Part shown: piece after piece, positions 4,104 to 32,000 of the stretch
How the letters are laid out: every line of letters begins with the position of its first letter
Position numbering within the stretch: the first letter of the stretch is position 1
DNA from: Acaryochloris thomasi RCC1774
GTDB taxonomy: Bacteria; Cyanobacteriota; Cyanobacteriia; Thermosynechococcales; Thermosynechococcaceae
Assembly: GCF_003231495.1 (NCBI RefSeq)
Contig: NZ_PQWO01000001.1
Location: 240,001-272,000 of the forward strand
Reading direction: 5' to 3'
Length of the DNA stretch: 32,000 nt
Translations under genes and position numbers: made by a program
Notes under the pieces: generated by a model
Database searches by the model: none
Seen by the model: only the letters and a program-made list of their open reading frames with translations
Told to the model about the DNA's origin: nothing

Positions 4104-7100
4104 CAAAACGATCCTATCTTCGCGCCAGCCTTTTAGGACTGCTCATCAGCAGCGGCTGGGCGATCGTCCCCACCCTAGCCACAGCTCAAACACTGAAGCT
4201 AGAGCCGACTCCGAGTTCTACAGAAGCCGTTTCATCTACGGCGACCCCAACCACAAAGCCTACGGCTGCTGCTTCATCTACGGCTTCTACCCCAGAGCCT
4301 ACGGTAGAAACTGAAGTCTCTGTCCCGTCAGAAGAAATTACTGAAGCACAGGCTGCTGAAGCTGTGCCCTCTCAGCCTCCTGTTGATTCTGGAGCAGCGC
4401 CAGCAGCGCCTGTCGCTCAGGCGGCACCGCAGGCCCAGACCGTCAAAATCCTATCCCCGCCTTCAGGCGCAACCCTACCGCAGCCTTCTTCCACCGTAAT
4501 TGTGGAGTATAAGGTCGGTCAAACGGTTAATTTGCAGGTCAATGGTAAGCAGGTCGACCGCAGCTTGATCGGTCGCACCGAAACCAATAGTGAAACAGGC
4601 AAAGTCCGCGAGACTTGGTACGGCGTTATTTTTGGCGCTGGGGGCAATACCCTCACCGCTCATCTAGACGGCAGTAGTGAGCCAGCCACAACAGTTAACC
4701 TCGAAGTCCCTGGCGAACCGGATCGGATCAAAGTCAGCACGCGCGAAACCCGAGTCCCAGCAGATGGACGCTCCACAGTCACAGTTGTAGGCCAGCTTCT
4801 CGACAGTCGTGGCAACCGCTCTAGCTGGAATTCACACATTACGCTAGAGGCAAGTGAAGGTGAATTTGTCGGCGTCGATGCCAACTCTACTACACCCGGA
4901 TTTCAGGTTGAGGCCGTCAATGGCGAATTTACAGCCGAACTGCAGGCCGGTCTACAGGCGGGCGCACTGCGGATTCGGGCCAGCAATGGCGAAATGGAAG
5001 GCTTCCATCAGTTGCAGATGGTCACCCCCCTGCGTCCCTCGGGACTACTAGCAGGTGTCGTTGATGTTCGCTTCGGGCGGCGGGGCACAGACTTCTTTGA
5101 TAGCTTCCGCGACTTTCTGCCCCCGGATGGAGACAATCGCTTTGAGCTAGACACCCAAGCTTCAGGCTTCGCCACCACCTCTGTCGGAGAGTGGCTATTT
5201 ACCGGTGCCTTCAATACTGAGCGTCCGCTGAACGAAGACTGTCGTGGTGAATCAACGCTATTCCGAGCGCAGGTAGACTGCGATGACACCCAATATTCCG
5301 TCTACGGCGATAACTCCACCGTTGAGTCCTTCGCTTCTTCCACCGACAACCTTTATCTGCGCCTAGAGCGTACTTCCCCCGTCCCGAATGCGGGGATTGA
5401 CTATGTCCTGTGGGGAGACTACAACACCAACGAATTTGCTCAGCCCTCACAGTTCTACACCGCCACTAATCGCGCCCTCCACGGCGCTAAGGCTAACTAC
5501 AATCTCGGCAACCTACAAATCACAGGCATCTTCGGCAACAACACCGAGGGCTTCCAGCGCGATACCATTGCCCCCGACGGCACCAGCGGGTTCTATTTTC
5601 TGTCTCGTCGCCTGCTGATCTCTGGCAGTGAGCAAGTTTATCTAGAACTAGAAGAACTCGATCGCCCCGGCACAGTTCTAGAACGGACGCGCCTCCTTCG
5701 AGGTGCTGACTATGACATTGACTACGATCGCGGCACCCTGCTGTTCCGGCGTCCGATTCTGCGTACCGATGTCACCGAAGATGGTCGCGTTGCCGTACGC
5801 CGAATTGTCACCACCTATCAGTTTGAAGGTGAAGGGGGCGGCACCAGCATCTATGGCGGGCGGCTACAGTACAACTTTTCGCGGGGCTTAGACAAAGAAA
5901 CTTGGTTGGGAGCTACCTATCTCCTTGAAGATCGGGGCGATCAAGACTTTGAGCTGTTCGGCGCTGATGCCTATGTGTCTCTAGGGGGCGATCGCTACCT
6001 GATTGCAGAATACGCCCACTCTGAAAACGGCCTTGACTTCAGCGAGGCCATCAGCGGCGACGCCTACCGCGTAGAGCTAGCCGGAACCATTATCGATAAG
6101 GTCACGGGTCGAGCCTACTTCAACCACAGCGATACGGGTTTCTCGAATACAGCCACCACGAGCTTTGTACCCGGCCAAACCCGCTACGGTGCAGAGGTCA
6201 CAGCCGAGCTGTCCAGCTCTACAAGTCTGCGAGCCAGCATTGATCACGAAGACAACAATGGCATCGCCCCTCAGCCCCTCGATACCTTTGAAGACCTGAT
6301 TCGTCCTGGCTTTGCGCCCACGCCAGGTATTGGTGTTGACAACTCATTGACCACAATCACAGCAGGCATTCAGCAGCGCATCGGTCGCGGTACGCTTGGG
6401 GTTGACTATGTTCGTCGTGAGCGCTCAGGTGACTTTAGCAATGTCAGTTCCGATCAGATTCGCACCAGCTTTATCACCCAACTGACAAACGATCTCAGCT
6501 TTCATGCCTACAATGATCTGACCCTATCCTCTGAGTCAGATCCTGTCCATCCGAATCGGACTACGATTGGGGTTGACTGGCAAGTTCATCCCGGCATCAC
6601 GGTGGCGCTCAATCAGTCCTACTTCACAGGGGGACAGTTTGACGATGACTTTTTAACCAGTCTCGATATCAAGGGCGAGCATACCTTCTCAACGGATACC
6701 ACTTTGCGGGGCGAAGTCTCAGTGCTGGGCGATCGGGGACTCGTCGGACGCTTCGGCATCGATCAGGGTGTAACGCTAGCCCCCGGTTTAGAGGCAGATT
6801 TCTCCTATGAGCGGGTCTTTAGCGGGTTCCGCGACACGGCAGCGGGCAGTCAGTTCGCGCAGCCCTTTGCGGTTGGCTCTGGCGCTTCGGCTTTGGGCCT
6901 CACCTCTGGCAACAGCTTCAGTGCCGGTCTCAGCTACACCGATAATCCTGACTTCAAAGCTAAGGCACGGGTTGAATACCGCGATTCTACCTCTCAAGGC
7001 TCGAATCTAGTGATTACCGCTGATGCGCTAGGCCGCATTAACAATCGCTTTACAACGCTGGCGAGCTACAGCCAAGCCAGTTCTGCGAACCAGACTCTCA

Positions 7101-16941: not shown

Positions 16942-17053
16942 TTGAATGGGATTCCTATGAAAGCAATGGAACCTAGCATTGGCTAGGCTCGTCACTGATC
17001 GTACTCCGTTTCGGGGTTACTTACATCTCCTATCGGCGTGTCGTATTTCACCT

Positions 17054-17677
17054 ATGGCTCAGCAACCTCAGCGTCCCCCTTTAAGTTCAGCCACTCCAGA
17101 GACAGCCATCGATGAATCCTGGTGGCTAGATCTTTTCAAGACCATTGCCTTGAGCCTTTTTCTTGCCTTCGGCATTCGCACCTTTGTCGCTGAAGCACGC
17201 TACGTTCCCACGGGGTCTATGAAGCCGACCATCGCCATCAACGATCGCCTCATTGTTGATAAAGTCACCTTTCGGCTGCGTCAGCCCGTCCGCGGAGACA
17301 TTATTGTTTTCAAGCCCACTGCGGCGCTGCGTGAGCAAGGCTATAGCGACACCTTTGTGAAACGCATCGTTGGCCTCCCCGGAGATCGAATCGAGATTAA
17401 AGAAGGGGCCGTATTCATTAACGGCACCCAGCTACAGGAAGGCTATGTCGCGAACGGTGACCAAACTTTCACGGATCTCTGTCACAGTGGCAAGACAATT
17501 CCGGCAACCGCCTTCTTAGATCAGCCTCGCGCCATTCCGGCCAACAGCTACCTTGTCTTAGGAGACAACCGGCACAACAGCCACGATGGTCGCTGCTGGG
17601 GCCTGGTTTCGAGCCAGGAATTAGTCGGACGGGCCATGCTCCGATACTGGCCGCTCAATCGATTTTCCTCTCTCTAA
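17054..17677 (+). CDS. lepB: Signal peptidase I (paralogue 1)
   Basis: The catalytic Ser box is PTGSMKPTI and the Lys box is VKRIVGLPGD. GDNRHNSHDGRCWG is also present. I prefer the ATG at 17054 to the TTG at 16979, which would overlap the ilvD 5' region. Confidence 0.85.
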   Translation: MAQQPQRPPLSSATPETAIDESWWLDLFKTIALSLFLAFGIRTFVAEARYVPTGSMKPTIAINDRLIVDKVTFRLRQPVRGDIIVFKPTAALREQGYSDTFVKRIVGLPGDRIEIKEGAVFINGTQLQEGYVANGDQTFTDLCHSGKTIPATAFLDQPRAIPANSYLVLGDNRHNSHDGRCWGLVSSQELVGRAMLRYWPLNRFSSL

Positions 17678-17817: not shown

Positions 17818-18477
17818 ATGTCTAAAAATAGTCACCAGCAGCCGAATTCCTCCAAAACGCAAGAAATAAACGACACAGAGGAGTCTTGGTGGCTAGAAGC
17901 GATTAAAACCATCGGTTTAAGCCTATTTTTGGCCTTTGGCATTCGCACCTTTGTTGCAGAGGCTCGTTATATTCCCTCCGGTTCGATGGAGCCGACATTG
18001 CAAATCAACGATCGCCTGATTATTGATAAAGTGAGCTACGATTTCCGTAAGCCAGTACGCGGCGATATTGTGGTTTTCAACCCCACCCAAGCCCTGAAAG
18101 ACCAAGGATTTGATGATGCCTTTATCAAGCGCATTGTTGGGGTTGCTGGCGATAAGATTGAGATCCAAGACGGGACCGTGCTGCTCAACGGTCAGCCCTT
18201 GAAAGAACTCTACGTTGCCAACGGCGATGACACCCTCGTCGATACCTGCGGTGGCGGTCCGAGTGGCTCCGCTCCTGCCTTTCTGCAAAACCCCCAAACC
18301 ATTCCAGAGAACAGCTACTTGGTTCTGGGAGACAACCGCCACAATAGCTATGATGGCCGCTGTTGGGGAGTTGTTGCTGATGATGAGTTAGTGGGACGGG
18401 CTGTCTTTCGCTTTTGGCCCCTCCATCGCCTAGGCACCATTCCTGAGCCAAAGGTCTCAGAGCCAGGTGAGAGCTGA
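17818..18477 (+). CDS. lepB: Signal peptidase I (paralogue 2)
   Basis: PSGSMEPTL, IKRIVGVAGD and GDNRHNSYDGRCWG are present. It aligns without difficulty to the upstream paralogue over its whole catalytic region. Confidence 0.85.
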   Translation: MSKNSHQQPNSSKTQEINDTEESWWLEAIKTIGLSLFLAFGIRTFVAEARYIPSGSMEPTLQINDRLIIDKVSYDFRKPVRGDIVVFNPTQALKDQGFDDAFIKRIVGVAGDKIEIQDGTVLLNGQPLKELYVANGDDTLVDTCGGGPSGSAPAFLQNPQTIPENSYLVLGDNRHNSYDGRCWGVVADDELVGRAVFRFWPLHRLGTIPEPKVSEPGES

Positions 18478-18520
18478 CGCTTTACCCATCGCTTACTCGT
18501 CTTGGCTTGCCTATTACTAG

Positions 18521-18551
18521 ATTCGTGCTTTTGTGCAGGCCAAGCACGAAT
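18521..18551. terminator. Hairpin between convergent lepB-2 and the GNAT gene (possible bidirectional terminator)
   Basis: attcgtgctt (18521-18530) is the exact reverse complement of aagcacgaat (18542-18551), with an 11-nt loop. It abuts the GNAT stop at 18552 and is flanked by ttt on the + side. Confidence 0.5.
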
Positions 18552-19094
18552 TTATAGATCACGGAACGCTTCGTGATATTGGATGATGCCATGAACGTCA
18601 CTGAGGCAGCTAGGGCTTAGCGCCAAGATCATAAAAGCATCATCAGGCACTTCGTAGCTGGAATGAATGTCGAAGAGACTCGCGGGCACAAAGCCAAATC
18701 TCGGGTAGTAGCTGGGATACCCCAATACAACAATCGCATCGTATTCAAGCCTGCGGCAGGCGGTAATGCCTGCTTTGATAAGTTGAGAGCCGATACCTTG
18801 GCGTTGTGCTGCAGGCAGAACGGCCATCGGAGCCAATCCCATGAGCTTTCGTTTAGAACACTCTCCGACCAAATCTACTGGGGTCAACAGAAGATGCCCG
18901 ATAACGGTGCTGCCCCGCTCTGCCACAAAGGAGAGGTAGGGAGAAGCACTCTTTCTGAGGGCATTGACGAGATTGGCCTCAGCTTCTGTTTCAAAGGTCT
19001 GCTGGTTCACAGACCAGATCGCATCAACATCTGATATCCGTTCTGGGCGAATAATTGTTTCTTCACCGGGGCTTCTTTTCTGGCTCACTGACAA
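18552..19094 (-). CDS. GNAT family N-acetyltransferase
   Basis: The acetyl-CoA binding motif is LAPMAVLPAAQRQGIGSQLIKAG. The C-terminal YYPRFGFVPA is typical of YhbS-like GNATs. Confidence 0.8.
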   Translation of the reverse strand: MSVSQKRSPGEETIIRPERISDVDAIWSVNQQTFETEAEANLVNALRKSASPYLSFVAERGSTVIGHLLLTPVDLVGECSKRKLMGLAPMAVLPAAQRQGIGSQLIKAGITACRRLEYDAIVVLGYPSYYPRFGFVPASLFDIHSSYEVPDDAFMILALSPSCLSDVHGIIQYHEAFRDL

Positions 19095-19186
19095 CCTCTT
19101 GCTTGTCGTCGCTCTCTAGGCTGCGGTCAATCGCTCTCCCAATTCACCAGCTATGGTGTAAGACACCTACTCCTGCAACTTGAGTT

Positions 19187-19606
19187 ATGACTTCTGAGAA
19201 TATCACTCTGCTTCGAATCGGCGAGCTGCACAGGGTCAGTCAAGTCCCCATCAAAACTATTCGCTACTACGAAGCGCTGGGACTCATTCAGGCAGATCAG
19301 CGAACTGAGGGCGGGTTTCGCCTCTTTTACCCTGAGGTCGCCGACCGGCTCGCCTTCATCAAACGAACCCAAAGCCTCGGGTTCAGTCTCGAAGAGATCG
19401 GGCATATTCTAAACATTCATGATCAAGGAGAGCTGCCCTGTGCAGAAGTTCGACAGCAGCTGCAGATAAAGATTACTGAGATCGATCAGCGCATTGCCCA
19501 ACTCCAAACTTTGCGGACAGAGCTGATATCTTTAACCTCTGAATCCCCTAGTCTGGAAGAAATCTCAGACGATGTTATTTGTCCGATACTGCAGTCTCCA
19601 GGGTAA
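19187..19606 (+). CDS. MerR family transcriptional regulator (metal/redox-responsive type)
   Basis: The N-terminal HTH is LRIGELHRVSQVPIKTIRYYEALGLI. RTEGGFRLFYPEVADRLAFIKRTQSLGFSLEEI follows, then a coiled-coil dimerisation helix. Cys residues occur at PCAEV and VICPIL. Confidence 0.85.
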   Translation: MTSENITLLRIGELHRVSQVPIKTIRYYEALGLIQADQRTEGGFRLFYPEVADRLAFIKRTQSLGFSLEEIGHILNIHDQGELPCAEVRQQLQIKITEIDQRIAQLQTLRTELISLTSESPSLEEISDDVICPILQSPG

Positions 19607-21954: not shown

Positions 21955-23553
21955 ATGAGCTACGCGATTGATTTTGGCACCAGTAACACCGTAATTACCC
22001 GCTGGAATCCGGCCACGGAAAAGCCGGAGGTGGTTAGCCTCAGGGGCATCAGTCATCGAGTGGCCCAGAATCCCGACCTGATTCCCAGTTTGGTCTATGT
22101 TGAACAGGCCGCACAGGAACAGGTTTTGATTGGGCAGCAGGTTTGCGATCGCGGTCTCGATATCCAGGCTGATCCGCGCTTCTTTCGCACCTTTAAGCGG
22201 GGGATTGGCTCTGATATCCAGGGTTTCTTGCCGGAGCTAGACGGCCAAACCGTCAGCTTTGAGCAAGTGGGCCGCTGGTTTTTAGTCAACTTAATGCAGC
22301 AGCTCAAGACAAACAATCCTGATGCCGGTGACTCTTTGGTGCTGACAGTCCCGGTGGATAGCTTTGAGACCTACCGGCACTGGTTAGGGGGCGTTTGCCA
22401 AGATTTGGGCGTCGAGCAGGTGCGAATGCTGGATGAACCTACTGCTGCGGCGTTGGGCTATGGCAAGGCCGATCAAGAAACGCTCTTGGTGGTGGATTTT
22501 GGCGGGGGAACGCTGGATCTATCATTGGTGCAGCTTGGCACTGAGAGTCAATCAAAGACCCAGCCGCTAGGCTTTATTCTCAAGTGGGGCGAGAAAAATT
22601 TAGCGGAAACTTCAAACCAGCGTCCGAAGACAGCGCGGGTATTAGCGAAGGCGGGACAGAATTTAGGCGGCACCGATCTTGACAATTGGCTGATGGATCA
22701 CTTTGCAAAGAGTCAGCAGCTACCCGTCACGCCTCTAACCCAAAGGCTAGCGGAACGTCTCAAAATTCAGCTTTCACTCCAGCCCAAAGCCACGGAGGTT
22801 TATTTCAATGAAGAGACCTTTGATAGCTACGAGCTGACCTTAGACCGTTCGCAATTTGAAGAAATCCTCAGGGAACATCAGTTTTTTGACCGACTTGATA
22901 CCAGTATGGAGCAGGTTTTGCAGCAGGCCCGCCGTCAGGGTCTCACGGTCGAGGATATTGATGCGGTGCTGCTCGTGGGCGGCACGAGTTTGATCCCAGC
23001 GGTGCAGACCTGGGTAAAGCAATATTTTGATGAGGGCAAGATTTGCAGCAGTCGGCCCTTTGATGCGATCGCAACCGGCGCACTGCAGGTCACACAAGGG
23101 CTAGAGGTCAAAGACTTCCTCTACCACAGCTACGGCATCCGCTACTGGGACCGGCAAAACAACTGCCATAACTGGCATCCGATCATTCCGGCGGGCTTAC
23201 CGTACCCCATGAATGAGCCGATTGAGATCTCGCTTGGGGCTTCAATGGAAGTACAGCCCAGCATTGAGCTGATTATTGGGGAGCTGGGCGATGCAATGGG
23301 CGGCACGGAGGTCTATTTCGATGGCGACCGTTTGGTCACCCGACAGCTTTCTGAGCAGCAGCAGGTGCAGACGCTTAATGATCGGGAGGGGGCAAGAAGC
23401 ATTGCGGAGCTTAAGCCGCCGGGGTATCCGGGTTGCGATCGCATCAAAGTCTCCTTCCTGGTTGATGAGCAACGGTCACTGCGGCTCAGCGTCGAAGATC
23501 TATTAACCCAAGACACTCTAATGGAGAATCAAGTCGTCGCTCAATTGAGCTAA
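21955..23553 (+). CDS. Hsp70 family (DnaK-like) ATPase lacking a canonical substrate-binding lid
   Basis: The actin-fold phosphate motifs are AIDFGTSNTVI, LDEPTAAALGYG, VVDFGGGTLDLSLV and LLVGGTSLIPAVQ. Confidence 0.8.
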   Translation: MSYAIDFGTSNTVITRWNPATEKPEVVSLRGISHRVAQNPDLIPSLVYVEQAAQEQVLIGQQVCDRGLDIQADPRFFRTFKRGIGSDIQGFLPELDGQTVSFEQVGRWFLVNLMQQLKTNNPDAGDSLVLTVPVDSFETYRHWLGGVCQDLGVEQVRMLDEPTAAALGYGKADQETLLVVDFGGGTLDLSLVQLGTESQSKTQPLGFILKWGEKNLAETSNQRPKTARVLAKAGQNLGGTDLDNWLMDHFAKSQQLPVTPLTQRLAERLKIQLSLQPKATEVYFNEETFDSYELTLDRSQFEEILREHQFFDRLDTSMEQVLQQARRQGLTVEDIDAVLLVGGTSLIPAVQTWVKQYFDEGKICSSRPFDAIATGALQVTQGLEVKDFLYHSYGIRYWDRQNNCHNWHPIIPAGLPYPMNEPIEISLGASMEVQPSIELIIGELGDAMGGTEVYFDGDRLVTRQLSEQQQVQTLNDREGARSIAELKPPGYPGCDRIKVSFLVDEQRSLRLSVEDLLTQDTLMENQVVAQLS

Positions 23554-23642
23554 AGCAATCGCCATCGCAAAACAGATATACAGCGTATTTCATTATTCTT
23601 GCGTACAGTAGCAGTAGTGAGGTTTTGCTGCATTTCTTTGAA

Positions 23643-23828
23643 TCAGGCTAAATCATCCTCAGATAGCTGAGCAATTTTCATCAATGCCTTCAGAGTGCCA
23701 GTTTTGAGATCTTGGTTACGGTGAACAGGAATCGACAGAATCTTCTCTACGTCAAGGTTCTCATAGATGTGATGGCTACCCGTCACTTTGCGCAACAACC
23801 ATCCTCTCTGTTCTACGATCTTGCACAA
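23643..23828 (-). CDS. hicA: HicA family toxin (mRNA interferase)
   Basis: IVEQRGWLLRKVTGSHHIYEN...IPVHRNQDLKTGTLKALMKIAQL is HicA-like. The only canonical start is the TTG at 23828. The conserved upstream in-frame residues (IKSISGKR) begin at an ATA (23852-23850) that overlaps the hicB stop. Confidence 0.7.
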   Translation of the reverse strand: MCKIVEQRGWLLRKVTGSHHIYENLDVEKILSIPVHRNQDLKTGTLKALMKIAQLSEDDLA

Positions 23829-23848
23829 CCGCTTGCCAGAGATAGACT

Positions 23849-24052
23849 TTATACAGCGATTTCAACAATTTGGTCTGTGGGTTCAACTGCATCATGACTG
23901 TTGGCAACGCTGAGCCAGCCTTCAATCGCGTCCGCAAGGTTAGCTTTTACTTCTTCCATTGAGTCCCCTTCCGTTATGCAGCCAGAGAGAGCGGGTACCT
24001 CTGCCCAATAGCCTCCTTCTTCTGCGGGATGAATGATGGCTTTGATTTTCAT
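23849..24052 (-). CDS. hicB: HicB family antitoxin (UPF0150 fold)
   Basis: MKIKAIIHPAEEGGYWAEVPALSGCITEGDSMEEVKANLADAIEGWL is HicB-like. I prefer the ATG at 24052 to the maximal ORF start at 24127. Confidence 0.8.
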   Translation of the reverse strand: MKIKAIIHPAEEGGYWAEVPALSGCITEGDSMEEVKANLADAIEGWLSVANSHDAVEPTDQIVEIAV

Positions 24053-24123
24053 ATGCTGGCTTAGCCGTTTATTGAGAACATATTGGCAATGAAATTTACC
24101 CACGTTGCTGTGATTTCGATTGG

Positions 24124-24282
24124 TCAAGTACTTATTAAGGCTTTGTAGGCTTGACTTCGAGTATAGCCAATCGTCTTTATCGATATCTTTAGTGAAGTGT
24201 CGTAACTCTTGCAGGCAAGATGATGAACAGTCTCAGGCAAGGCATTAAAGCGTTCCCAAAACTGAGGTGTGGTTCGAGGCAC
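24124..24282 (-). pseudogene. Truncated ParE/RelE-like toxin remnant
   Basis: A 52-codon frame opens at GTG: VPRTTPQFWERFNALPETVHHLACKSYD... This matches the N-terminal F..F..LP..V...A.K.Y pattern of small cyanobacterial RelE/ParE-type toxins. Similarity is then lost, and the frame stops just upstream of hicB. Confidence 0.35.
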
Positions 24283-24305
24283 TTACAGATCCTGTCGTGT
24301 GTTCC

Positions 24306-24485
24306 CTAGGCCTTGGCTGCCATGGCCTCTTCCAATAAAAAATCTAGCTTACCGCTAGCGATATCAGCTTCAAGTTGCCGATCCCAGCATATCCAATCTT
24401 TCTGGGCAAACCACTCTCTGATTCGAACAAAGTCTTCCTGAGAAAGCGCCTCGGTTTCAGCTTTGATCTGTTCTACCTGTGTTAT
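24306..24485 (-). pseudogene. Antitoxin-like small ORF without a canonical start codon
   Basis: The frame reads ITQVEQIKAETEALSQEDFVRIREWFAQKDWICWDRQLEADIASGKLDFLLEEAMAAKA then stop. No ATG, GTG or TTG occurs before the last 7 codons. An ATA (24485-24483) sits where a start would be expected. The frame lies directly upstream of the toxin remnant. Confidence 0.4.
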
Positions 24486-24539
24486 GAGGGAGGGTTGCTT
24501 TAAGTGTAGAGGAGCTTTTGTATTTTAGCAGGAGCACCA

Positions 24540-24592
24540 GATCGCAAGGCAGTCTACTCCAATGAAGTATTGTACGTGCCACTGATTAAGTC
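24540..24592 (+). repeat. Inter-cassette repeat, copy A (core only, most diverged)
   Basis: The sequence is gatcgcaaggcagtctactccaatgaagtattgtacgtgccactgattaagtc. It aligns to copies B-D, with about 12 differences from copy D over the 52-nt core. Confidence 0.8.
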
Positions 24593-24684
24593 CTCAGAGG
24601 TAATTGCCTAAAAGAGAGAAGCCAGTTGTCAGTGTTCACAGGAGAACAGCGGAAGGGTGAGAAGTGTCTATCCTGAAGCGATGA

Positions 24685-24882
24685 CTAAAATGCTTTTGGC
24701 AATCCGGCTTGTTTCAGTACCGCATTGGCTGTGTGGCGAGACTTAATGGACTGATCAACGACAAAGCGGTGCTGGGTGATTAGGCTATAGCAGATTTCAT
24801 GATCGCCTTTTCCGCTGCGCTCGAAAGAGCACTCTGCTGCTTTCAGCTTCTTTTTCAGTGCAGGGGTGAACAATTTGGGCAT
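24685..24882 (-). CDS. hicA: HicA family toxin
   Basis: SFERSGKGDHEICYSLITQHRFVVDQSIKSRHTANAVLKQAGL is HicA/YcfA-like. Its ATG immediately follows the upstream gene's TAA (TAAATG junction). Confidence 0.7.
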   Translation of the reverse strand: MPKLFTPALKKKLKAAECSFERSGKGDHEICYSLITQHRFVVDQSIKSRHTANAVLKQAGLPKAF

Positions 24883-25128
24883 TTACACAGTAAGTTGAAT
24901 CAGTTCTTGCCGATGGCTAATTAGCTCAATCTTGATGGCACCTGTGTGATCGCTTGGCAGCAGATGATTCAACTGCAGTAGCTCAGGCACAATAGTCTTT
25001 AGCTTATGGAGTAAAGCCTCTTGAGAGTCAGCTTCAGTCGCAAGTCCAGGAACGTCCTCGCTAGTGGCGGTCCAGACCTGAGCGTCTGAGTCCCAGAATG
25101 CGCCAATTTTGTAGATTTCTTGACTCAT
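24883..25128 (-). CDS. DUF1902-type (HicB-like) antitoxin
   Basis: YKIGAFWDSDAQVWTATSEDVPGLATEADSQEALLHKLKTIVPELLQLN matches the DUF1902 pattern (WD.EA.VW.A.S.D.PGL.TEA...E.L..KL...PELL). Confidence 0.65.
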   Translation of the reverse strand: MSQEIYKIGAFWDSDAQVWTATSEDVPGLATEADSQEALLHKLKTIVPELLQLNHLLPSDHTGAIKIELISHRQELIQLTV

Positions 25129-25231
25129 ATCTATAAATTTAGAGACCTATTAGATAAGGCGTGGCTCCAATATAGCAATGGGGTGATACGGTCTGAGCAG
25201 TATGAGGTTTACAGGGCTACTATTCAGAGAA

Positions 25232-25340
25232 ATCGCAAGTCAGTCTACTCTGCAGCAACATCGTATGTGCCACTGATTAAGTCTTTGAATATAATCACCC
25301 AAACGAGTAGCCAACCTCCAAGGATAGAGCGATGGAGTGG
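25232..25340 (+). repeat. Inter-cassette repeat, copy B (core plus 3' extension)
   Basis: The core atcgcaagtcagtctactctgcagcaacatcgtatgtgccactgattaagtctttgaat has 8 differences from copy D over 52 nt. The extension cgagtagccaacctccaaggatagagcgatggagtgg is shared with copy D. Confidence 0.85.
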
Positions 25341-25382
25341 CGGGCAAGGCTCTCTGCCTCCCCCATACAACTTTCTCCGTGA

Positions 25383-25643
25383 TTAGCTCATTACACTTAA
25401 CTCGTAATGGAGTGCTATAACTTCCTCGGTTTGCAGTACAGCCATTGCATACTCACGACCCTGTAAATCTGTGAACTCCACTAGGTAACGAGGCATGGTC
25501 CCCTCATAAACTTCTACGATAGTTCCTACCTGTCCACTGGGTAAGCTCTCAATAGACTGATAATCTGGCTCTATAAGGGTTAGCCGATCCACTGGAATCG
25601 GATGGAGGTTTGCGATCGTATCTAGAATACCTAGTGCTACCAT
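25383..25643 (-). CDS. DUF4926 domain protein (second gene of a DUF6883-DUF4926 pair)
   Basis: LPSGQVGTIVEVYEGTMPRYLVEFTDLQGREYAMAVL matches the DUF4926 pattern (G..GTIV.VY....YEVEF.D..G). The ATG at 25643 lies 5 nt after the upstream gene's stop. Confidence 0.65.
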   Translation of the reverse strand: MVALGILDTIANLHPIPVDRLTLIEPDYQSIESLPSGQVGTIVEVYEGTMPRYLVEFTDLQGREYAMAVLQTEEVIALHYELSVMS

Positions 25644-25648
25644 TTTCT

Positions 25649-25978
25649 CTACTTGATGAATGCGGAAACTAGACGTGGGTAGGGATTCTCTAAGCTGATT
25701 TCCCAAAGTGTACGCAGGATAACTTGATGGTGATTGGGAACTGACCAATCAACTTTATACAATTGACCAAAATCTGTGTTCGCTTGCTGGATCACTTCTT
25801 CTTCGAGAGCCGTCCTTACAATTAATTCTCGCAAATCCTCCGCATTTTTGGATGTGATACCTAATACGGAGGCGAAAACCCTTGCCTTATGCTTCCCGGA
25901 AGGATGTTCAGAATTCAGACAGTAGCCCTTCAGCTTCTCCATTGGAATTACAGCACGATTACCATTCGGTAACTTCAT
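25649..25978 (-). CDS. DUF6883 domain protein
   Basis: MKLPNGNRAVIPMEKLKGYCLNSEHPSGKHKARVFASVLGI...ILRTLWEISLENPYPRLVSAF matches the DUF6883 family pattern (KL..Y.L...H..GK.KA..F...G ... T.W ... PR.VTAY). Confidence 0.65.
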   Translation of the reverse strand: MKLPNGNRAVIPMEKLKGYCLNSEHPSGKHKARVFASVLGITSKNAEDLRELIVRTALEEEVIQQANTDFGQLYKVDWSVPNHHQVILRTLWEISLENPYPRLVSAFIK

Positions 25979-26198
25979 GATGCTGGCCTTTACCGATAGC
26001 TCTCTAAGTATATTGTGCTAGAAGGCTTAGAAGCTGCCCAATGGCTCAGTTGAGCAGAGACACACTAAATTTAAGAACCGCCATAACGCATAGCAAGCCC
26101 ACTCTAGCGATGCGTTGGGCTTTCCTGCTCACAGATAGCTTCTCGAAGGCTTGCTATGCACTGATCACTCCACCTAGCTATCTTCCGGTTTGAAAGCA

Positions 26199-26274
26199 AT
26201 CTTAAGTCAGTCTATTCCGATGAAATATCGTATGTGCCACTGATTGAGTCTTTGAGGCGATCGCACACAGTAAA
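26199..26274 (+). repeat. Inter-cassette repeat, copy C (core plus HIP1-containing segment)
   Basis: The sequence is atcttaagtcagtctattccgatgaaatatcgtatgtgccactgattgagtctttgaggcgatcgcacacagtaaa. It has 3 differences from copy D over the 52-nt core. Confidence 0.85.
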
Positions 26275-26424
26275 TCAGAAAATTATCAATATCCGCAGAG
26301 GGCGATTGAGTCGTGAGCAATTCTTAATCTACAGCTTCTGCCGATTTGATCATGAGCATGACCAGTTGTCTCCAGAACCGATAATCTTAGTGGAGTTATC
26401 ACCAGTGCAAGGGTCTGTATTTGT

Positions 26425-26763
26425 GTGAACATTCCTGATGATGCTCTAATACCGTTGCCTAAGCTTACGGACTATCTGCTGGTCCTGAAGGAGCAAGATG
26501 ACAAGTCACAATTTCTTGCACAGGCTGGGTTCACGCTTGCAAATCCCGAGGCTTTGATCTCAGCAATCAGACAACTTACGCAACAGACAGTCGCAACCTT
26601 ACAGAAAAGTAATCAGTACGGCAGTTACTATCAAGTGGAAGGGATTCTGAAAGGTCCCAATCGCCAAGTGATTGGAGTTGTTACCATTTGGTTACAGCGT
26701 GCAGATGGACAGGTCCAGTTTGTCACCCTTAAGCCTCGAAAGGAGCGTCCCAATGTCTCTTGA
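26425..26763 (+). CDS. DUF6883-like protein (divergent paralogue)
   Basis: GTG start. MNIPDDALIPLPKLTDYLLVLKEQDDKSQFLAQAGF...YYQVEGILKGPNRQVIGVVTIWLQRADGQVQFVTLKP has the same architecture as 25649-25978, but most residues differ. Confidence 0.6.
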   Translation: MNIPDDALIPLPKLTDYLLVLKEQDDKSQFLAQAGFTLANPEALISAIRQLTQQTVATLQKSNQYGSYYQVEGILKGPNRQVIGVVTIWLQRADGQVQFVTLKPRKERPNVS

Positions 26764-27019
26764 CCTTTATCAGCGGATCACACTGAGCCGAGATATCCCA
26801 GAGGAAGGACTTAAGACGGGTGATGTTGCTTATTTGCTGGATTACGTTCCCCATCTTCAGGGCGGGGAGTTGGGTTGCGTGTTGGAAGTTTTCAATGCTG
26901 TGGGAGAGTCAATCTCTGTACTTACGGTGCCAGAATCAGCGATCCAACCATTGCGACCTGATGAAATCTTGAGTGCTAGAGCTTTGGTTCCGACGACCGA
27001 GGCAAAAGCGAGCGGCTGA
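26753..27019 (+). CDS. DUF4926 domain protein (divergent paralogue)
   Basis: MSLDLYQRITLSRDIPEEGLKTGDVAYLLDYVPHLQGGELGCVLEVFNAVGESISVLTV is DUF4926-like. The ATG at 26753 overlaps the upstream gene's end by 11 nt. Confidence 0.65.
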   Translation: MSLDLYQRITLSRDIPEEGLKTGDVAYLLDYVPHLQGGELGCVLEVFNAVGESISVLTVPESAIQPLRPDEILSARALVPTTEAKASG

Positions 27020-27065
27020 TGCCGAAGCGGTAAACATCTTTGTGTCCTGTCCGTTGTAAAGAGAG

Positions 27066-27181
27066 ATCGCAAGTCAGTCTACTCCGATGAAATATCGTAT
27101 ATTCCACTGATTGAGTCTTTGAATGCGATCGCACAAAGTAAAAGCGAGTAGTTGACCTCCAAAAGTGGAGCGATGGAGTGG
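27066..27181 (+). repeat. Inter-cassette repeat, copy D (longest copy)
   Basis: The sequence is atcgcaagtcagtctactccgatgaaatatcgtatattccactgattgagtctttgaatgcgatcgcacaaagtaaaagcgagtagttgacctccaaaagtggagcgatggagtgg. It contains all segments seen in copies A-C. Confidence 0.85.
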
Positions 27182-27300
27182 TAGAAAATGTCCAGCCTAG
27201 AATTCTTCTGAGTTTTAATAGCCAAGCAGTTCTGTTCGATTTCAAGGGCTTTCACATAGGCTACACTTCTAATCAGGTTCAGAATAATCAAGAGAAGTAA

Positions 27301-28467
27301 GTGATCACGGAAACTGAAGTTAAAGATTTAGCAATTAAACAGGGCGTTACATTGCCTCGTGTCGAAAAAGATTATGTGATGGGCTGGCTACTGTGGGGAA
27401 TTTACAATGATCCCGTACTATCAAAAAATTTAGTACTTAAGGGCGGTAACTGCTTACGCAAAGTATATTTTCCTGACACTCGATTTTCTGATGACTTGGA
27501 TTTCACTGCATTTCGACTAGATACTAAGCAGGTGTTTCACCAAAGGCTCAATACAATTTGTGAAAACATACATCGTGCTTGTGGAATAGACTTCGATTTC
27601 GATAATACTCTCGTCAAAACTAAGCAGACACCTGACAAGGATTGTACGGCATTAGATGGTCGAGTTTACTTTCGAGGCTTTGCAGGCGATGCAAGCGTCA
27701 GCATGCGGATCAAGTTTGACATTTCTCAATTCGAGAAAATTGTACTACCCCTACAGAATCACTCTATCCTGCACAATTACTCTGACATTGATGCTTGTAA
27801 AGTTCTTATTCGGACGTACTCCCTTGAGGAAGTCCTTGCAGAAAAGTTAAGAAGTTGGATACAAAGGACTCGATCTCGTGACTTATTTGATGTAGTAAAG
27901 ATTGTGCAGAGCGAAGCTGTTCCTATCAGCAACATTAATATTCTGTCCGCATTCTTTCAGAAAACTATATTCAAAGATATACCGCTGGCCGGACAAGAAG
28001 AAATGCTATATGGACCAAAATTTGAAGGCATTGAGAACAGTTGGTTGAAAACTGTTATCAGTCCTCAGTCATCAATAATTGCAGCAGGAAACGCCATCTC
28101 GCTTTTTAAGGATTTCATCAATGCCTTATTCAAACCGGAGATTCTTGAAGCTGCTGGTTTCTCGCAGGCTAATGTATCCCCACATAATTACAATGTTCGC
28201 TCAGGTGTTCGAGAAGCGATTATTGAGGCTGGAAAAGTTCGAAAATCAATTCGGATGCAATATAAGGGGCGCGAGAGAAACATAGAACCTTACTCGTTTA
28301 GGTACAAAATAACGCAGAGGGGTTATGGCGCTGAATATTTCTATGGCTTTGATAGAACAAGTGGCGCAACTATCAAAAGTTTTTTTCTTCACCAAATTGA
28401 AGGTGTTAGTATACTCCCAGAACAATACATCCCTCGTTGGCACGTAGAATTCAAGCCTGATAAATAA
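27301..28467 (+). CDS. AbiEii/AbiGii-type nucleotidyltransferase (DUF1814) fused to a C-terminal WYL-like domain
   Basis: GTG start. AbiEii signatures are VEKDYVMGWLLWGI, LVLKGGNCLRKVYFPDTRFSDDLDFT and LAEKLRSWIQRTRSRDLFDV. The last ~75 aa, IRMQYKGRERNIEPYSFRY...GAEYFYGFDRTSGATIKSFFLHQIEGVSIL, follow the WYL pattern (Y....R.v.P..l....g.wYl.g.d.....R.F.l.rI..v). Confidence 0.7.
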   Translation: MITETEVKDLAIKQGVTLPRVEKDYVMGWLLWGIYNDPVLSKNLVLKGGNCLRKVYFPDTRFSDDLDFTAFRLDTKQVFHQRLNTICENIHRACGIDFDFDNTLVKTKQTPDKDCTALDGRVYFRGFAGDASVSMRIKFDISQFEKIVLPLQNHSILHNYSDIDACKVLIRTYSLEEVLAEKLRSWIQRTRSRDLFDVVKIVQSEAVPISNINILSAFFQKTIFKDIPLAGQEEMLYGPKFEGIENSWLKTVISPQSSIIAAGNAISLFKDFINALFKPEILEAAGFSQANVSPHNYNVRSGVREAIIEAGKVRKSIRMQYKGRERNIEPYSFRYKITQRGYGAEYFYGFDRTSGATIKSFFLHQIEGVSILPEQYIPRWHVEFKPDK

Positions 28468-28487
28468 CCTGAATATATGCAATGGTT

Positions 28488-28534
28488 CTTTAGGGATGAC
28501 AACAAGCTTTATAGGCTCGTTGTCATCCCTAAAG
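28488..28534. terminator. Perfect 16-bp stem hairpin 21 nt after the AbiEii-WYL stop (terminator or other structured element)
   Basis: ctttagggatgacaac (28488-28503) is the exact reverse complement of gttgtcatccctaaag (28519-28534), with a 15-nt loop. No T-run follows on the + strand. Confidence 0.5.
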
Positions 28535-29086
28535 GATCTCAACACTTGCTGGTAAAATTTAGGCAACATTTTTGTGATGGGGTAGTCGTCTTGACCGCCC
28601 TATTTTCTTTTGTGCCTTGAACACTAGAGCTACCAGCAGCAATAGGGGACAGGTGCCTTGTCATCCCTTAAGGCAATGGTTTCAAGATCAAGTGGGTAGA
28701 GCGCGCTCCTGTAGCTCTATGAGTCAACAACCAATTTGCAGGCTGCCTTGACATTCTCATTTTGAGGTCGAGGTTTAGATTTATAACTGTAAGTAATTTT
28801 GTACTCTACTAACTGAATTTTTAAAGGTGATCGCTTAGAGTAAAAAGTAAAGTAAGTGATTAACGCTTACATGTTGGTAATCAAATAGCGGAGATTGCTT
28901 ACCCGAATTATTTTTGCTACCTATGAATCATGTTGCGTGATGCTAATTGGGTTGTCTTCTAACGGTCCAACTCACTGGCGCGAAAGAGTCCTAGAAATCA
29001 AAGCAGATCTAGTATGCTCAATACTGAGCATCCAGTGCAGTGTAAGTTAGGCAAAACAAAAACACCAAGTCAAAACACTCACTATG

Positions 29087-29548
29087 CTATTCACAGCGAT
29101 ACCCTGGACTTGGCGACCAATTCGGAATTGTACGGATCCCATGATCAATCAAGAAATCTCCTTTGTCTAAGTTACCCTCGCATTTGTCTTCAATACAGAA
29201 ACAAGCTACAACCTCCCCTATTTGATGTTGATATAAAGTTTTCTTATCATATTTTTCAAGAATCATCTCTTCTAATTCTGAAGTAGGTACGACGGATCTT
29301 GATGGATCGTTAACAACGCTCATAGCAAAAATAAATAAAGGAATTCCGCCTAAACAAAGAGTCCACCACAAATATTTTTTAGTAAGGCGCGCTCTATCTC
29401 CAGAGCCTTGAAGGTTCTCGCTGCGTTCCTGCCTCTGCTTTTCATCTATTTCTTGCTGCTTTTGTCCACCTTTTGAAGACTCTCTCGATATGAAAGCCGC
29501 AGCAATAGTAGCGAATGCACCAATTAGTGCAACAATAACTGCTTCCAT
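29087..29548 (-). CDS. Hypothetical small membrane protein (two predicted TM helices, charged linker, Cys-containing C-terminal domain)
   Basis: ATG start. TM1 is MEAVIVALIGAFATIAAAFI, followed by a K/Q/E/R-rich linker. TM2 is WWTLCLGGIPLFIFAMSVV. The C-terminal ~75 aa contain CFCIEDKCEG. The gene is AT-rich, and I recognise no family. Confidence 0.45.
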   Translation of the reverse strand: MEAVIVALIGAFATIAAAFISRESSKGGQKQQEIDEKQRQERSENLQGSGDRARLTKKYLWWTLCLGGIPLFIFAMSVVNDPSRSVVPTSELEEMILEKYDKKTLYQHQIGEVVACFCIEDKCEGNLDKGDFLIDHGIRTIPNWSPSPGYRCE

Positions 29549-29815
29549 AATTCATTGTTTAGTGTTGCGTCGTTTATAACTTAAGCAGGTTTAATCACTT
29601 ATTGTGCGGAATTAATTCTGACAAACATACCCATCAGCTTGCTATACGGATTATATGCTGCATATCATACCGATCAGCCTATTTCTGCGAAAAGTCTTTC
29701 ACACATTATCCTGTTTTAGAGATCTTATACGGACATGTTCTGCATAATTCCCCAATGAACTTATTCCTCATCTAAACACTCAATTCCAGTTCTAGCCTTG
29801 CTGAGCATCGTCCAT

Positions 29816-32000
29816 CTACTGAGTTGTGTTCGTAGGAGGATCCGTAGCTAAATCTCCGTCAGGCTCAGGCTCCAGCTCAAGTAAGATTTCATTCACCTCA
29901 CTAATCGGGAACCGATCCATCAGCTGCTGTGCCCGCTTCGCATTCTGCCGCAACTCCCCAGATGTATGCGGCGCATGAGGAATCTGAGACAAAATATCCA
30001 ACGTTCGCCGCAGCATCCGCACAATATCGCCCTCATCTAAACTCGTGTGGGTACACAGCTCCAGCCAGTCCATTCCCAACGCCCACTGCTCCACAATGCC
30101 AATCAGCTCCGTCTCCAACCCAATAGGACTCATAACATCCTGACGATACTGCTCCTTAAGCAACTGCCGCTGAATCGGACGCAGCTCAGCCAACGCCTCC
30201 TGCACTTCTGCTGAAGGAGAAAAGTGAGTCCAGGTATCGGTGCGATTGTTGTCGTAAACCAGTGCCGTACAGGCCGCCGCCAACTGATGCGGAGCCAAAC
30301 TGTCAAAAACGCCGGAGCTAAAAACCAGCCCTAGCCACAGCTCATTCTCGCCCCGTAGCCCAGAGGCCATCTCTCCCAAAGGCGTCGGTGTCACATCCTG
30401 CAGACCGTTGAAGTGGCGCAGCACCTTGACCAGGCCCATAAACTCATCCCAGTGGTGGTGCGATCGTCGATGGAATTTAGTTTGACGATCTTCTAACTGT
30501 GCTTCCAAGCTCTTCACCCGTCGCTGCCACCGCAAAATTGAATGGTGACTCTTACGCGAAGCATGGGCCGGATGCCCCTCTATCTTCTGCTGTACTGCCT
30601 CCAATCGCTTGCTCTGGTCATGGACTTCAGGAGCCACCTGCCATTCTCCCGCCGGGATTTGCTTGGCAATAGCAACACTCGATTCATCCCCATTGGCAGA
30701 CTGTCCTACTTTCGGCTGCAACGTTGCGGGAGGTGTCAATGCTTCCAGCTCAGCCTCTAGCGAAAGATGGCCTTCTAAGCTAGCAACCTCTTTATGGGAA
30801 ATCACCTGCCAGCGGTTCTTCTGAGTTAAAGAAATAAAGTACGGAAGCTGACCGGAACTAGGCAACTGGCGGACCAAGATGGCTGAAACGGGGCTGTCTT
30901 GTTCTGATGTTTGGACACCCACCACAGTTCCGATAGGCGCATGAGCCATAATCAGGGCTAGCTCTTGAGCGCGGTTTTCTTGGGCCTGCTGCTGCAAAAT
31001 TTTCAATAAGCGCCGCTCTTCTTTAACGCGCTGCCGCAGCTTTTGATAGCTGTTGAGTTCTGCTAGGTCGATATCGGCTAGCTTGGCTTGAAGGCTGGTC
31101 AGTTCTTGCTCTACAGATGCGATCGCATCTTTCTGCGGATTGAGCTGTAGCATCCCCAAATACTGCCCGAAGCTTTTCTCAATCAGAGCCTTAGCTTCAT
31201 CAAGGCTGTGCGTCTGCAGCAGATTCAGCACCATCCCGTAGCTAGGGGTAAACTGGCTTACCAGCGGATCAGCTCCTACAGTCGCCAGGTAGGATGCTTC
31301 CTTCGCCCCTTCAAAACGAGTTTGCACCGTGACGACGTGACCGCTATCATCCATCCCTCGCCGTCCGGCTCGCCCTGACATCTGCAAAAATTCAGAGGCC
31401 GTCAGCAGGCGATGGCCGTCGTCTGTGCGTTTCGATAGTGTAGAAATCACCGTCGTCCGCGCAGGCATGTTGATCCCTGCAGCAAGCGTTTCAGTGGCAA
31501 AGACCACCTTGATTAATCCCTGCTGGAATAGCTCTTCCACTAATCCTTTCCAAGCTGGGAGCAGACCGGCATGGTGGGCGGCAATACCGCGATAGAGGGC
31601 GTCAAACTGTTCCAGTTGCCCGACATCAGGGTTCTGCTGCCGGAAGGCATCCACCTGACGCTTCAGTTCTGAGGCTTCTGCATCATTGACGAGACTCAAA
31701 CCGCTGGCCTCTTGGACCGCTTTATCGCAGCCCCGCCGACTGAAGATGAAATAAATGGCAGGCAGCATGTCCCGCTGGCGCATCTGTTCCACAATGCTGG
31801 GGAGGCTGGGCACATTGGGCCGAGGTGGACGCTTACCGCGATGACGACCGCGACCGCGATTCTTATTACTGGGCTTCGCCATTTGTGACTTAAGCTGCGG
31901 ATGCATCTTCGTCTTTTGCTCATTGAGCAGACGGCAGAGGCCTTTATTTCCAGCGAAATGGAAGTTAAGGGGTACGGGTCGCCAATCGGAATCCACCAGA
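29816..32000 (-). CDS. Ski2-like DEAD/DEAH-box helicase, C-terminal ~two-thirds (N-terminus outside the window)
   Basis: The frame stays open to the window edge. RPVPLNFHF, GIAAHHAGLLPAWK, VVFATETLAAGINMPARTTV and QMSGRAGRRGMD (helicase motifs IV-VI) are present. The C-terminal DSHCT-like region is EGDIVRMLRRTLDIL. Confidence 0.85.
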   Translation of the reverse strand, partial: LVDSDWRPVPLNFHFAGNKGLCRLLNEQKTKMHPQLKSQMAKPSNKNRGRGRHRGKRPPRPNVPSLPSIVEQMRQRDMLPAIYFIFSRRGCDKAVQEASGLSLVNDAEASELKRQVDAFRQQNPDVGQLEQFDALYRGIAAHHAGLLPAWKGLVEELFQQGLIKVVFATETLAAGINMPARTTVISTLSKRTDDGHRLLTASEFLQMSGRAGRRGMDDSGHVVTVQTRFEGAKEASYLATVGADPLVSQFTPSYGMVLNLLQTHSLDEAKALIEKSFGQYLGMLQLNPQKDAIASVEQELTSLQAKLADIDLAELNSYQKLRQRVKEERRLLKILQQQAQENRAQELALIMAHAPIGTVVGVQTSEQDSPVSAILVRQLPSSGQLPYFISLTQKNRWQVISHKEVASLEGHLSLEAELEALTPPATLQPKVGQSANGDESSVAIAKQIPAGEWQVAPEVHDQSKRLEAVQQKIEGHPAHASRKSHHSILRWQRRVKSLEAQLEDRQTKFHRRSHHHWDEFMGLVKVLRHFNGLQDVTPTPLGEMASGLRGENELWLGLVFSSGVFDSLAPHQLAAACTALVYDNNRTDTWTHFSPSAEVQEALAELRPIQRQLLKEQYRQDVMSPIGLETELIGIVEQWALGMDWLELCTHTSLDEGDIVRMLRRTLDILSQIPHAPHTSGELRQNAKRAQQLMDRFPISEVNEILLELEPEPDGDLATDPPTNTTQ

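Follow-up and report, generated by a model that had tools for sequence, protein, structure and literature searches.

The window, a 32,000-nt stretch of the chromosome of Acaryochloris thomasi RCC1774 (NZ_PQWO01000001.1, positions 240,001 to 272,000), contains an island in which small gene cassettes, mostly putative toxin-antitoxin (TA) modules, are interspersed with copies of a non-coding repeat of constant orientation, hereafter referred to as unit or linker. An Hsp70 gene and a DSHCT helicase gene, with their 3' ends converging, enclose the island (23554-29871). Nine out of ten window proteins are exactly matched in A. thomasi RCC1774, under consecutive locus tags, and the source locus carries tags C1752_00267 to 00274. 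Outside the island the window is ordinary chromosome, coding for dihydroxy-acid dehydratase, signal peptidases, a peroxiredoxin, glucokinase, D-Tyr-tRNA deacylase, Hsp70 and the DSHCT helicase. The GC content is 38-48% across 23550-29800 and 50-56% on either side and, being below that of both flanks, it indicates that this stretch was acquired.

A repeat search of the window retrieved four direct copies of the unit, all on the plus strand and in register at 24535, 25226, 26193 and 27060. The four same-orientation copies reported by the initial annotation were thus confirmed, as were two of its spacings (967 and 867), the first one being 691 and not 692. According to shuffled sequences, no chance match is expected for a degenerate pattern fitting all four copies, and nhmmer recovered them with E-values of 1e-35 to 1e-38 using a profile of these four copies, and of about 1e-31 to 1e-42 using a profile of the 11 units described below. 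With the latter profile a degenerate fifth unit, E, which had been overlooked, was detected downstream of the AbiEii gene (28786-28919, plus strand, E 8e-7), following unit D beyond a 1.6-kb cargo stretch; the five plus-strand units span 24520-28919, and units make up ≈13% of island DNA. The repeat length originally proposed (55-115 bp) has also to be revised, the full unit measuring ≈135-170 nt. Pairwise local alignments showed a ≈60-nt core common to all copies, and weaker homology running ≈70-100 nt further. Core identity among the four strong units is 74-92%. A recount over the 52-nt core gave the same differences from unit D as previously counted (3 for C, 8 for B and 12 for A), in agreement with 50, 48 and 44 identities with D when scoring over 56 nt. 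The units and their internal features in the window are the following:

24520-24690 (plus): unit A, with type-I core at ≈24541-24599 and type-3 tail; nhmmer E 5.5e-34
24600-24607 (plus): central 8-mer of unit A, GTAATTGC, degenerate
24671-24686: second junction-motif remnant of unit A, TCCTGAAG-CGATGACT, adjoining the hicA-like stop codon
25211-25382 (plus): unit B, type-I core and type-1 tail; nhmmer E 9e-31
25290-25297 (plus): central 8-mer of unit B, TATAATCA, degenerate
26178-26346 (plus): unit C, type-I core, HIP1 octamer GCGATCGC at 26257-26264, type-2 tail; E 4e-42
27045-27213 (plus): unit D, type-I core, HIP1 at 27125-27132, type-1 tail; E 1.3e-39
28786-28919 (plus): unit E, degenerate and AT-rich; detected by nhmmer at E 0.015 when searching with the four-copy profile, and at 8e-7 (bias 10.3) when using that of 11 units
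28827-28834 (plus): central 8-mer of unit E, GTGATCGC

Two other sequences were found to carry units of the same family, and two cassette proteins of the window have relatives at 90% or above elsewhere, according to a protein cluster look-up. The first sequence, L016, is a 17-kb orthologous locus from the metagenome-assembled genome GCA_039814705.1, in which S26 peptidases, MerR, AhpC, glucokinase, Dtd, Hsp70 and helicase are found as in the window, with nucleotide identity of 91-93% in the left flank and 89% in the helicase gene. Its island, 2.9 kb compared with about 6.3 kb in the window, reads U1, DUF6883+DUF4926, U2, HicA+HicB-like (plus strand), U3, HicA/HicB (minus), U4, PIN/MazE (minus), where U1-U4 are units of the same family, all on the plus strand (E 2e-25 to 7e-40). 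The only cassette common to both islands is the plus-strand DUF6883-DUF4926 pair, here termed cassette 4 (86% identity over 886 nt, window 26257-27142). The second sequence, L017, is a 1.1-kb contig from SRR14610195 carrying a DUF4926 gene, a unit (L17a), DUF1902 plus HicA-like, and a second unit (L17b). The DUF1902/HicA-like pair, corresponding to cassette 2 of the window at 83% nucleotide identity, is there flanked by two units with the same relative polarity and has a different neighbour, namely another DUF4926 gene.

Polarity is thus uniform in 11 out of 11 units from the window, L016 and L017, and the comparison of the L016 locus and of the L017 context indicates that cassette content varies between strains at the repeats. 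This supports the cassette-array organisation originally suggested for the region, since L016 shows the same locus and the same polar repeats with mostly different TA cargo, and L017 a different neighbour; the region is therefore not syntenic and invariant across strains, the outcome that the initial annotation had named as speaking against its proposal. The HicAB cassette of L016 is also present in another organism (L018) at 76% nucleotide identity, where no units accompany it.

The cargo genes and remnants of the window island are listed below:

23643-24127 (minus): hicA (23643-23828) and hicB (23849-24127) cassette; Pfam HicA_toxin 1e-14 and UPF0150/HicB_lk
24124-24524 (minus): decayed two-gene module, with an antitoxin-like 72-codon frame lacking a start codon (24309-24524) and a truncated 52-aa open reading frame (ORF, 24124-24282)
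24685-25128 (minus): cassette 2, HicA-like (24685-24882) and DUF1902 (24883-25128)
25383-25978 (minus): cassette 3, DUF4926 (25383 to about 25643) and DUF6883 (25649-25978); Pfam 1.7e-12 and 2.1e-26
26425-27019 (plus): cassette 4, DUF6883 (26425-26763) and DUF4926 (about 26754-27019)
27301-28467 (plus): AbiEii-family nucleotidyltransferase, extended at its C-terminus and placed as cargo between units D and E; Pfam AbiEii 4e-29
29087-29548 (minus): hypothetical protein of 153 aa whose N-terminus is hydrophobic, closing the cargo series on the helicase side

Pfam searches confirmed HicA/HicB, the HicA-like and DUF1902 pair, the two DUF6883 and DUF4926 pairs on opposite strands and AbiEii, in line with most of the gene names first given. 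Of the other two, WYL derives solely from the UniRef name of the AbiEii-family protein ('WYL domain-containing protein'), and the supposed ParE-like pair corresponds to the decayed module (24124-24524), whose ORFs had no family match. In the 388-aa AbiEii-family protein the domain match covers residues 31-210 only and no AbiEi antitoxin gene is present upstream, so this protein may be a fused or orphan variant. A 20-nt inverted repeat (28488-28534, 95% complementary, 7-nt loop) begins 21 nt past its stop codon, and a third copy of the arm, TTGTCATCCCTNAAGG, is found 138 nt further (28651-28673). The hicAB cassette directly adjoins the truncated 52-aa ORF of the decayed module, with no unit in between (24058-24282), and was apparently brought in by an event which truncated the older gene and made no use of a unit.

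The two DUF6883 proteins of the window are only 27% identical and the two DUF4926 proteins have no detectable similarity, confirming the high divergence of the two pairs already noticed. As this diverged cargo stands beside cores that are 74-92% identical, the repeats were not copied along with the cargo, in keeping with the earlier statement that they are not a by-product of a recent segmental duplication. In L016 the DUF6883 gene of cassette 4 (6605-6960) has an in-frame TAG at 6791-6793 and is a pseudogenised partner of the pair, the DUF4926 gene being intact. Anabaena cylindrica (pANACY.03, 5818-6392) also has a DUF6883-DUF4926 pair, located in a type I restriction-modification operon with the S subunit gene on one side and the R subunit gene on the other, indicating that the pair travels as a two-gene module in other defence contexts. 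In a TA-rich cyanobacterial metagenome contig (L009) a DUF4926 domain is fused to a TPR protein. The same contig contains duplicated gene fragments with 87-94% identity (1484-1656 and 3241-3410; 2913-3037 and 3443-3567), from which it appears that TA arrays of the phylum rearrange by segmental duplication as well.

Alignment of the 11 units allowed their anatomy to be described. The full unit is composed of the ≈60-nt core, a HIP1-centred motif, a 'mid' segment and a tail of ≈70 nt. The central motif reads about TCTTTGAAG-GCGATCGC-ACAAAGTAAA, with ATCAAGCAAACA as right arm in some units, and is found, intact or decayed, at all 11 unit junctions; GCGATCGC is HIP1, the palindromic octamer highly iterated in cyanobacteria. 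In units C, D, U1, U3, U4 and the two of L017, HIP1 is located at the core/mid boundary, U2 having it at the left boundary. Across ≈10 kb of island DNA from the three sequences there are eight full HIP1 sites, every one inside a unit and at one of these two fixed positions; no HIP1 site occurs in the window cargo, and the flanks contain ≈0.6 per kb.

Units are also mosaic. Cores are of type I in units A-D, U2 and U4, of type II in both L017 units, and of type III or absent in U1 and U3, and three tail types (1, 2 and 3) combine freely with them, independently of the cargo. For example, U3 and L17a share 95% identity in motif and mid and 84% in the tail, and have different genes on both sides. 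Some units are partial, U3 lacking the core and L17b the tail, and one junction is composite, unit A being followed by the second motif remnant next to the hicA-like stop; such forms are not expected from precise site-specific exchange. Identity between paralogous cores is 74-92% in the window and 81% in L017, whereas comparison of the window core and the L017 core that come after the shared cassette 2 gives only 35%, against 83% for the cassette itself. Such a pattern, with paralogous cores more alike than orthologous ones, is the hallmark of homogenisation within an array. The possibility that the unit is a tandem dimer of a ≈65-nt subrepeat was discarded, similarity between each core and its own tail not exceeding that of shuffles, except weakly in unit C (z about 2.2).

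The nature of the unit was investigated by exclusion. The initial annotation had likened the array to integrons, while admitting that canonical attC core sites were not evident and that an integrase was absent from the window. Both of these latter remarks agree with our regular-expression and Pfam scans, and the attC/integron reading itself was not supported as regards membership, while as a mechanism it is weakened by the partial and mosaic units and the scattered breakpoints. No RYYYAAC (R'')/GTTRRRY (R') pair was found in or around any unit (23500-29700, both strands), the single pair retrieved, at 28965-29052, being at chance level (1.7 ± 2.0 in shuffles). Folded as single-stranded DNA (ssDNA), the 55-nt cores of the window gave -2.6 to -4.0 kcal/mol (z -0.7 to +0.4). 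With the flanking HIP1 halves included, unit D reached -9.1 kcal/mol (z -1.6) and units C, U2 and U4 were no better than shuffles, whereas the type-II cores of L017 gave -11.2 and -12.9 kcal/mol (z -2.0 and -3.6) with a central hairpin of 7-12 bp. As type-II cores fold well and type-I cores mostly do not, structure is not a consistent property of the unit family. No integrase, transposase or remnant thereof was found by Pfam in the window, among all ORFs of at least 90 aa plus the small ORFs of the island, and no recombinase was called in the 17-kb L016 locus.

A coding origin was considered as well, as a plus-frame peptide (RKSVYSDEISYVPLIESL) and a minus-frame peptide with a shared stop looked coding by eye. 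It was ruled out: variable sites are distributed 7/7/9 over the codon phases, with no three-base periodicity, a six-frame peptide profile of the repeat had no match at E≤10 among 5.8 billion proteins, and ORFs over the repeats had neither a Pfam match nor a conserved start codon. A tRNA- or tmRNA-derived att repeat was likewise rejected, since ARAGORN found neither gene in the window and no unit runs into an intact gene.

The alternative of a repeated structured RNA, raised by the initial annotation, received no support either. Units had no match in Rfam 15 at the gathering score or at E≤10; RNAalifold predicted 0 pairs on the 11 units and, on four units, a weak hairpin (-7.9 kcal/mol, 2 compensated pairs); single-sequence folding of 120-nt units gave ordinary z-scores, from -1.5 to +2.0. 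A wider explanation is that the unit is a cis-acting expression element or a small RNA gene under selection at each junction, acting as insulator or terminator between TA operons or as a portable minus-strand promoter. It would account for the position of three of the four units first reported, which lie upstream of minus-strand operons, and for two features seen by eye, namely a weak promoter-like TTCAAA-N18-TACGAT (TACAAT in unit A) on the minus strand of the core and a 5-bp tail stem enclosing a loop of 12-14 nt, conserved in spite of three distinct sequences (TCAAT/ATTGA, TCAGT/ACTGA and CTCCA/TGGAG; window 26286-26312 and 27155-27177, L016 7898-7925) and not called by RNAalifold. However, units face gene starts and ends indiscriminately, a scan for promoters and terminators gave nothing recurrent in the units, and the RNA searches above were null. 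Moreover, unrelated TA operons normally have autoregulated promoters of their own. Taken together, these observations make the expression element very unlikely.

We also considered whether units might be small non-autonomous transposable elements, resembling a MITE (miniature inverted-repeat transposable element) or an insertion sequence (IS) end, with a preference for gaps between TA genes. Such an element would indeed appear as a short non-coding repeat in intergenic gaps, and a 10-nt inverted repeat flanking the core of unit B and the 12-bp hairpin of the type-II cores could be seen as its marks. Nevertheless, the units showed no conserved terminal inverted repeat and, on inspection by eye, no target-site duplication; they are mosaic and sometimes partial, and all 11 have a single polarity. 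Copies outside arrays were not found: the 11-unit profile detected no unit in ≈40 kb of flanking chromosome of the window strain and of L016. Scans with the core pattern gave at most chance matches among GTDB species representatives, where the copies of the window itself were not returned, its genome or this stretch being absent or masked there, and chance matches or none in JGI metagenomes and IMG/VR. Searching plasmids (PLSDB) with blastn matched cargo genes and no units. Neither a TA array nor units were present in the Hsp70 neighbourhoods of more distant relatives (seven loci, L003-L005 and L011-L014, 78-93% identity), and no units in the two loci L009 and L010 retrieved by protein homology search. 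A transposable element is thus the most improbable of the explanations considered here.

The boundaries of homology between genomes bear on how cassettes are exchanged. For cassette 4, window and L016 are homologous from the HIP1 of unit C (26257) up to 27142, 10 nt past the HIP1 of unit D. For cassette 2, homology between window and L017 stops on one side at the stop codon beside the motif remnant, and on the other fades through the 5' region into the unit, the core of which is of type I in the window and of type II in L017. Breakpoints are thus found not only at the motif but also at either edge of the unit, and cannot all be accounted for by one crossover position; accordingly, neither a left-HIP1 nor a right-HIP1 model of a single crossover point fits all four inter-genome boundaries.

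Based on these data, our preferred interpretation is that the island is a horizontally acquired, strain-variable region, where cassettes turn over by general recombination and gene conversion between linkers, possibly enhanced by HIP1, an interpretation to which we assign a probability of about one half. The island would be built of small self-contained cargo units, mostly two-gene TA modules on either strand, placed between non-coding linkers of the same polarity. Deletion between direct linker repeats would remove cassettes, and exchange with DNA incoming from relatives, or within the chromosome, would swap them at the linkers. The linkers themselves would trade segments, and gene conversion would keep them alike within an array. 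Turnover would then be caused by linker recombination of RecA type rather than by a site-specific reaction. The HIP1 site of the linker might serve as a recombination or uptake enhancer, a role made plausible by existing reports: integration by natural transformation is increased when the homology arms contain HIP1, which has been discussed as Chi-like (bioRxiv 10.1101/2024.09.10.611283), and HIP1 has also been put forward as an uptake signal (bioRxiv 10.64898/2026.06.24.733823). The mosaic and partial units, together with homology breakpoints at several positions, argue against precise site-specific exchange and favour recombination between linkers, so that general, HIP1-assisted recombination is more probably involved than a dedicated integrase.

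Several points weigh against this interpretation. The unit family is present in only three sequences, and a recombination event was not directly observed. Identical runs between linkers are short (≈19 nt), marginal for RecA-dependent exchange. Linker recombination would explain loss, shuffling and homogenisation of cassettes, and not how a new, unrelated TA module came to be flanked by linkers in the first place. The homology of cassette 4 is lost within ≈15 nt of the HIP1 motif at both ends (26257 and 27142), which a single crossover site would fit equally well. HIP1 is common genome-wide (17 sites in 32 kb), so that a conserved native repeat could contain it by coincidence. Finally, whole-island replacement through the conserved flanking genes could yield much of the difference between strains with the linkers remaining idle.

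The last point leads to the possibility that units are passive leftovers without a role, that is, that an old array formed once, by whatever route, gene conversion between close direct repeats alone keeps its units alike, and strains differ by independent deletions and whole-island replacement. Homogenisation of cores within arrays, the partial or decayed state of units A, B, E, U1 and U3, the pseudogenised cargo (the decayed module of the window, DUF6883 in L016) and island boundaries lying in or beside conserved genes usable as homology arms are all in accordance with it. On the contrary, the same unit blocks are found between different cargo on both sides in different genomes, which implies rearrangement at the units and not deletion alone. 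In addition, two strains with 91% identity in their flanks have unlike neighbours to the left and to the right of cassette 4, and the central motif with HIP1 is retained in a low-GC island otherwise free of HIP1. We therefore hold passive leftovers to be decidedly unlikely.

A dedicated site-specific system, in which a recombinase encoded elsewhere in the genome would excise and insert cassettes at the ≈30-bp imperfectly symmetric motif centred on GCGATCGC, after the fashion of integrons or Acinetobacter dif modules, with core and tail as accessory parts, deserves tentative credit, well short of an even chance. The motif is the one element recurring, intact or decayed, at all 11 junctions, and both boundaries of cassette 4 and one of cassette 2 lie within ≈15 nt of it. 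Polarity is the same throughout, cassettes are 690-970 bp long with genes on either strand and TA-rich cargo, and type-II cores fold well between HIP1 halves. Cores are moreover array-specific, as attC sites are integron-specific (PMC4889954). Against such a system stand the lack of a recombinase or remnant in the window and in the L016 locus, the partial units at 3 of the 11 junctions, the breakpoints that also fall at unit edges, and type-I cores that mostly do not fold. U3 and L17a, sharing motif, mid and tail, still have unlike flanks on either side; the same cassette is followed by a type-I core in unit B and by a type-II core in its L017 counterpart; and the dyad symmetry of the motif is approximate, as judged by eye. 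The bolder version of this idea, a novel cassette-capture system of this cyanobacterial lineage, functionally integron-like, with a recombinase shuffling defence and TA cassettes at a ≈30-bp HIP1-centred site on a chromosomal platform, appears rather unlikely.

To our knowledge, almost the only cassette arrays described are integrons, dependent on attC sites and IntI, and the dif modules that Acinetobacter plasmids carry, which depend on Xer. No IntI is known to us for the host of the present array. The array resembles integrons and attC-site clusters devoid of an integron-integrase (CALIN) in its organisation, with one- or two-gene cassettes of 0.5-1 kb on either strand, TA-rich, a fixed-polarity repeat per junction, repeats more alike within than between arrays, and cargo differing between related strains. 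As in an attC cluster, where two or more sites share a strand within 4 kb and have small cassettes between them, five window units lie on the plus strand, the four strong ones being 691-967 bp apart. It differs from them by the lack of R''/R' core sites and of a consistent bulged ssDNA hairpin, and by units of 135-170 nt with a conserved primary-sequence centre containing HIP1, some junctions being partial or composite. CALIN are attC clusters with no integrase nearby (PMC4889954), and the window array is likewise devoid of an integrase.

In Acinetobacter, dif modules are small accessory modules, often TA, bounded by short recombination sites and shuffled between replicons with no dedicated recombinase in the array (PMC13141974, PMC6449649). 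The present array is comparable in having small TA-rich modules bounded by conserved repeats and in encoding no recombinase. However, dif modules are carried by Rep_3 plasmids and have 28-bp sites (11-6-11) in alternating orientation, whereas our units are chromosomal, ≈150 bp long and have at their centre an 8-bp palindrome, flanked by sequence that is symmetric only in an approximate way. The units contained no recognisable 11-6-11 dif-like site, a cyanobacterial dif model for comparison being unavailable, and the alternating, inversely oriented 28-bp sites that define dif modules were not found, all 11 units being direct.

A third term of comparison is represented by the Neisseria 'minimal mobile elements' and by defence-island hotspots, where a fixed site between conserved genes hosts strain-specific cargo, exchanged via flanking homology after DNA uptake. 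If general recombination is the right mechanism, such a core-gene-flanked hotspot would be the closest mechanistic analogue; these hotspots, however, rely on the flanking genes and have no internal series of polar linkers between cargo units. HIP1 itself is, as far as we know, usually described as a dispersed 8-mer and not as the centre of a ≈150-bp repeat delimiting gene cassettes. The ≈150-bp polar, HIP1-centred linkers thus set the array apart from integrons and CALIN, dif modules and hotspots.

This chromosomal cyanobacterial array follows a cassette logic, with small TA/defence units, a polar repeat and turnover, and lacks the defining sequence features of integrons or dif modules. If linkers drive the turnover, they would provide the genome with a simple means to keep an exchangeable store of TA and abortive-infection genes. 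The presence of HIP1 at the linker centre, in an island otherwise free of it, offers a specific locus to probe the long-standing question of HIP1 function, and HIP1 would gain a concrete site-specific role if a recombinase system centred on it proved true. Even with passive linkers, the locus would be a clear defence/TA hotspot with concerted evolution of its spacers. Belonging to a named strain, A. thomasi RCC1774, the locus may lend itself to experimental work.

The limits of the island were defined by comparison with L016:

23554-23642 (no strand): junction on the left of the island, stretching from the Hsp70 stop codon as far as that of hicA
29816-29871 (minus): right island boundary, final ≈55 nt of the DSHCT helicase ORF

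At the left junction homology with L016 stops at 23567, 14 nt past the Hsp70 stop, and no unit was detected there by nhmmer (23554-23642). The junction terminates in TCTTTGAA, the left arm of the junction motif, a resemblance seen by eye only, and may represent a decayed unit. On the right, the final ≈55 nt of the helicase ORF (window 29816-29871, L016 9309-9352) are non-homologous between the strains and encode different C-termini; this places the island boundary inside the 3' end of the helicase gene.

Two further features were observed in the left flank, outside the TA island. A GNAT acetyltransferase gene (18552-19094, minus strand) is contained in a 745-nt stretch (18467-19210) replaced by 91 nt in L016, representing a second presence/absence difference between the two strains, with no relation to the TA island. 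S26 signal peptidase is encoded by two paralogues in tandem (16979-17677 and 17818-18477), with 66-68% nucleotide identity to each other across strains, both retained in L016.

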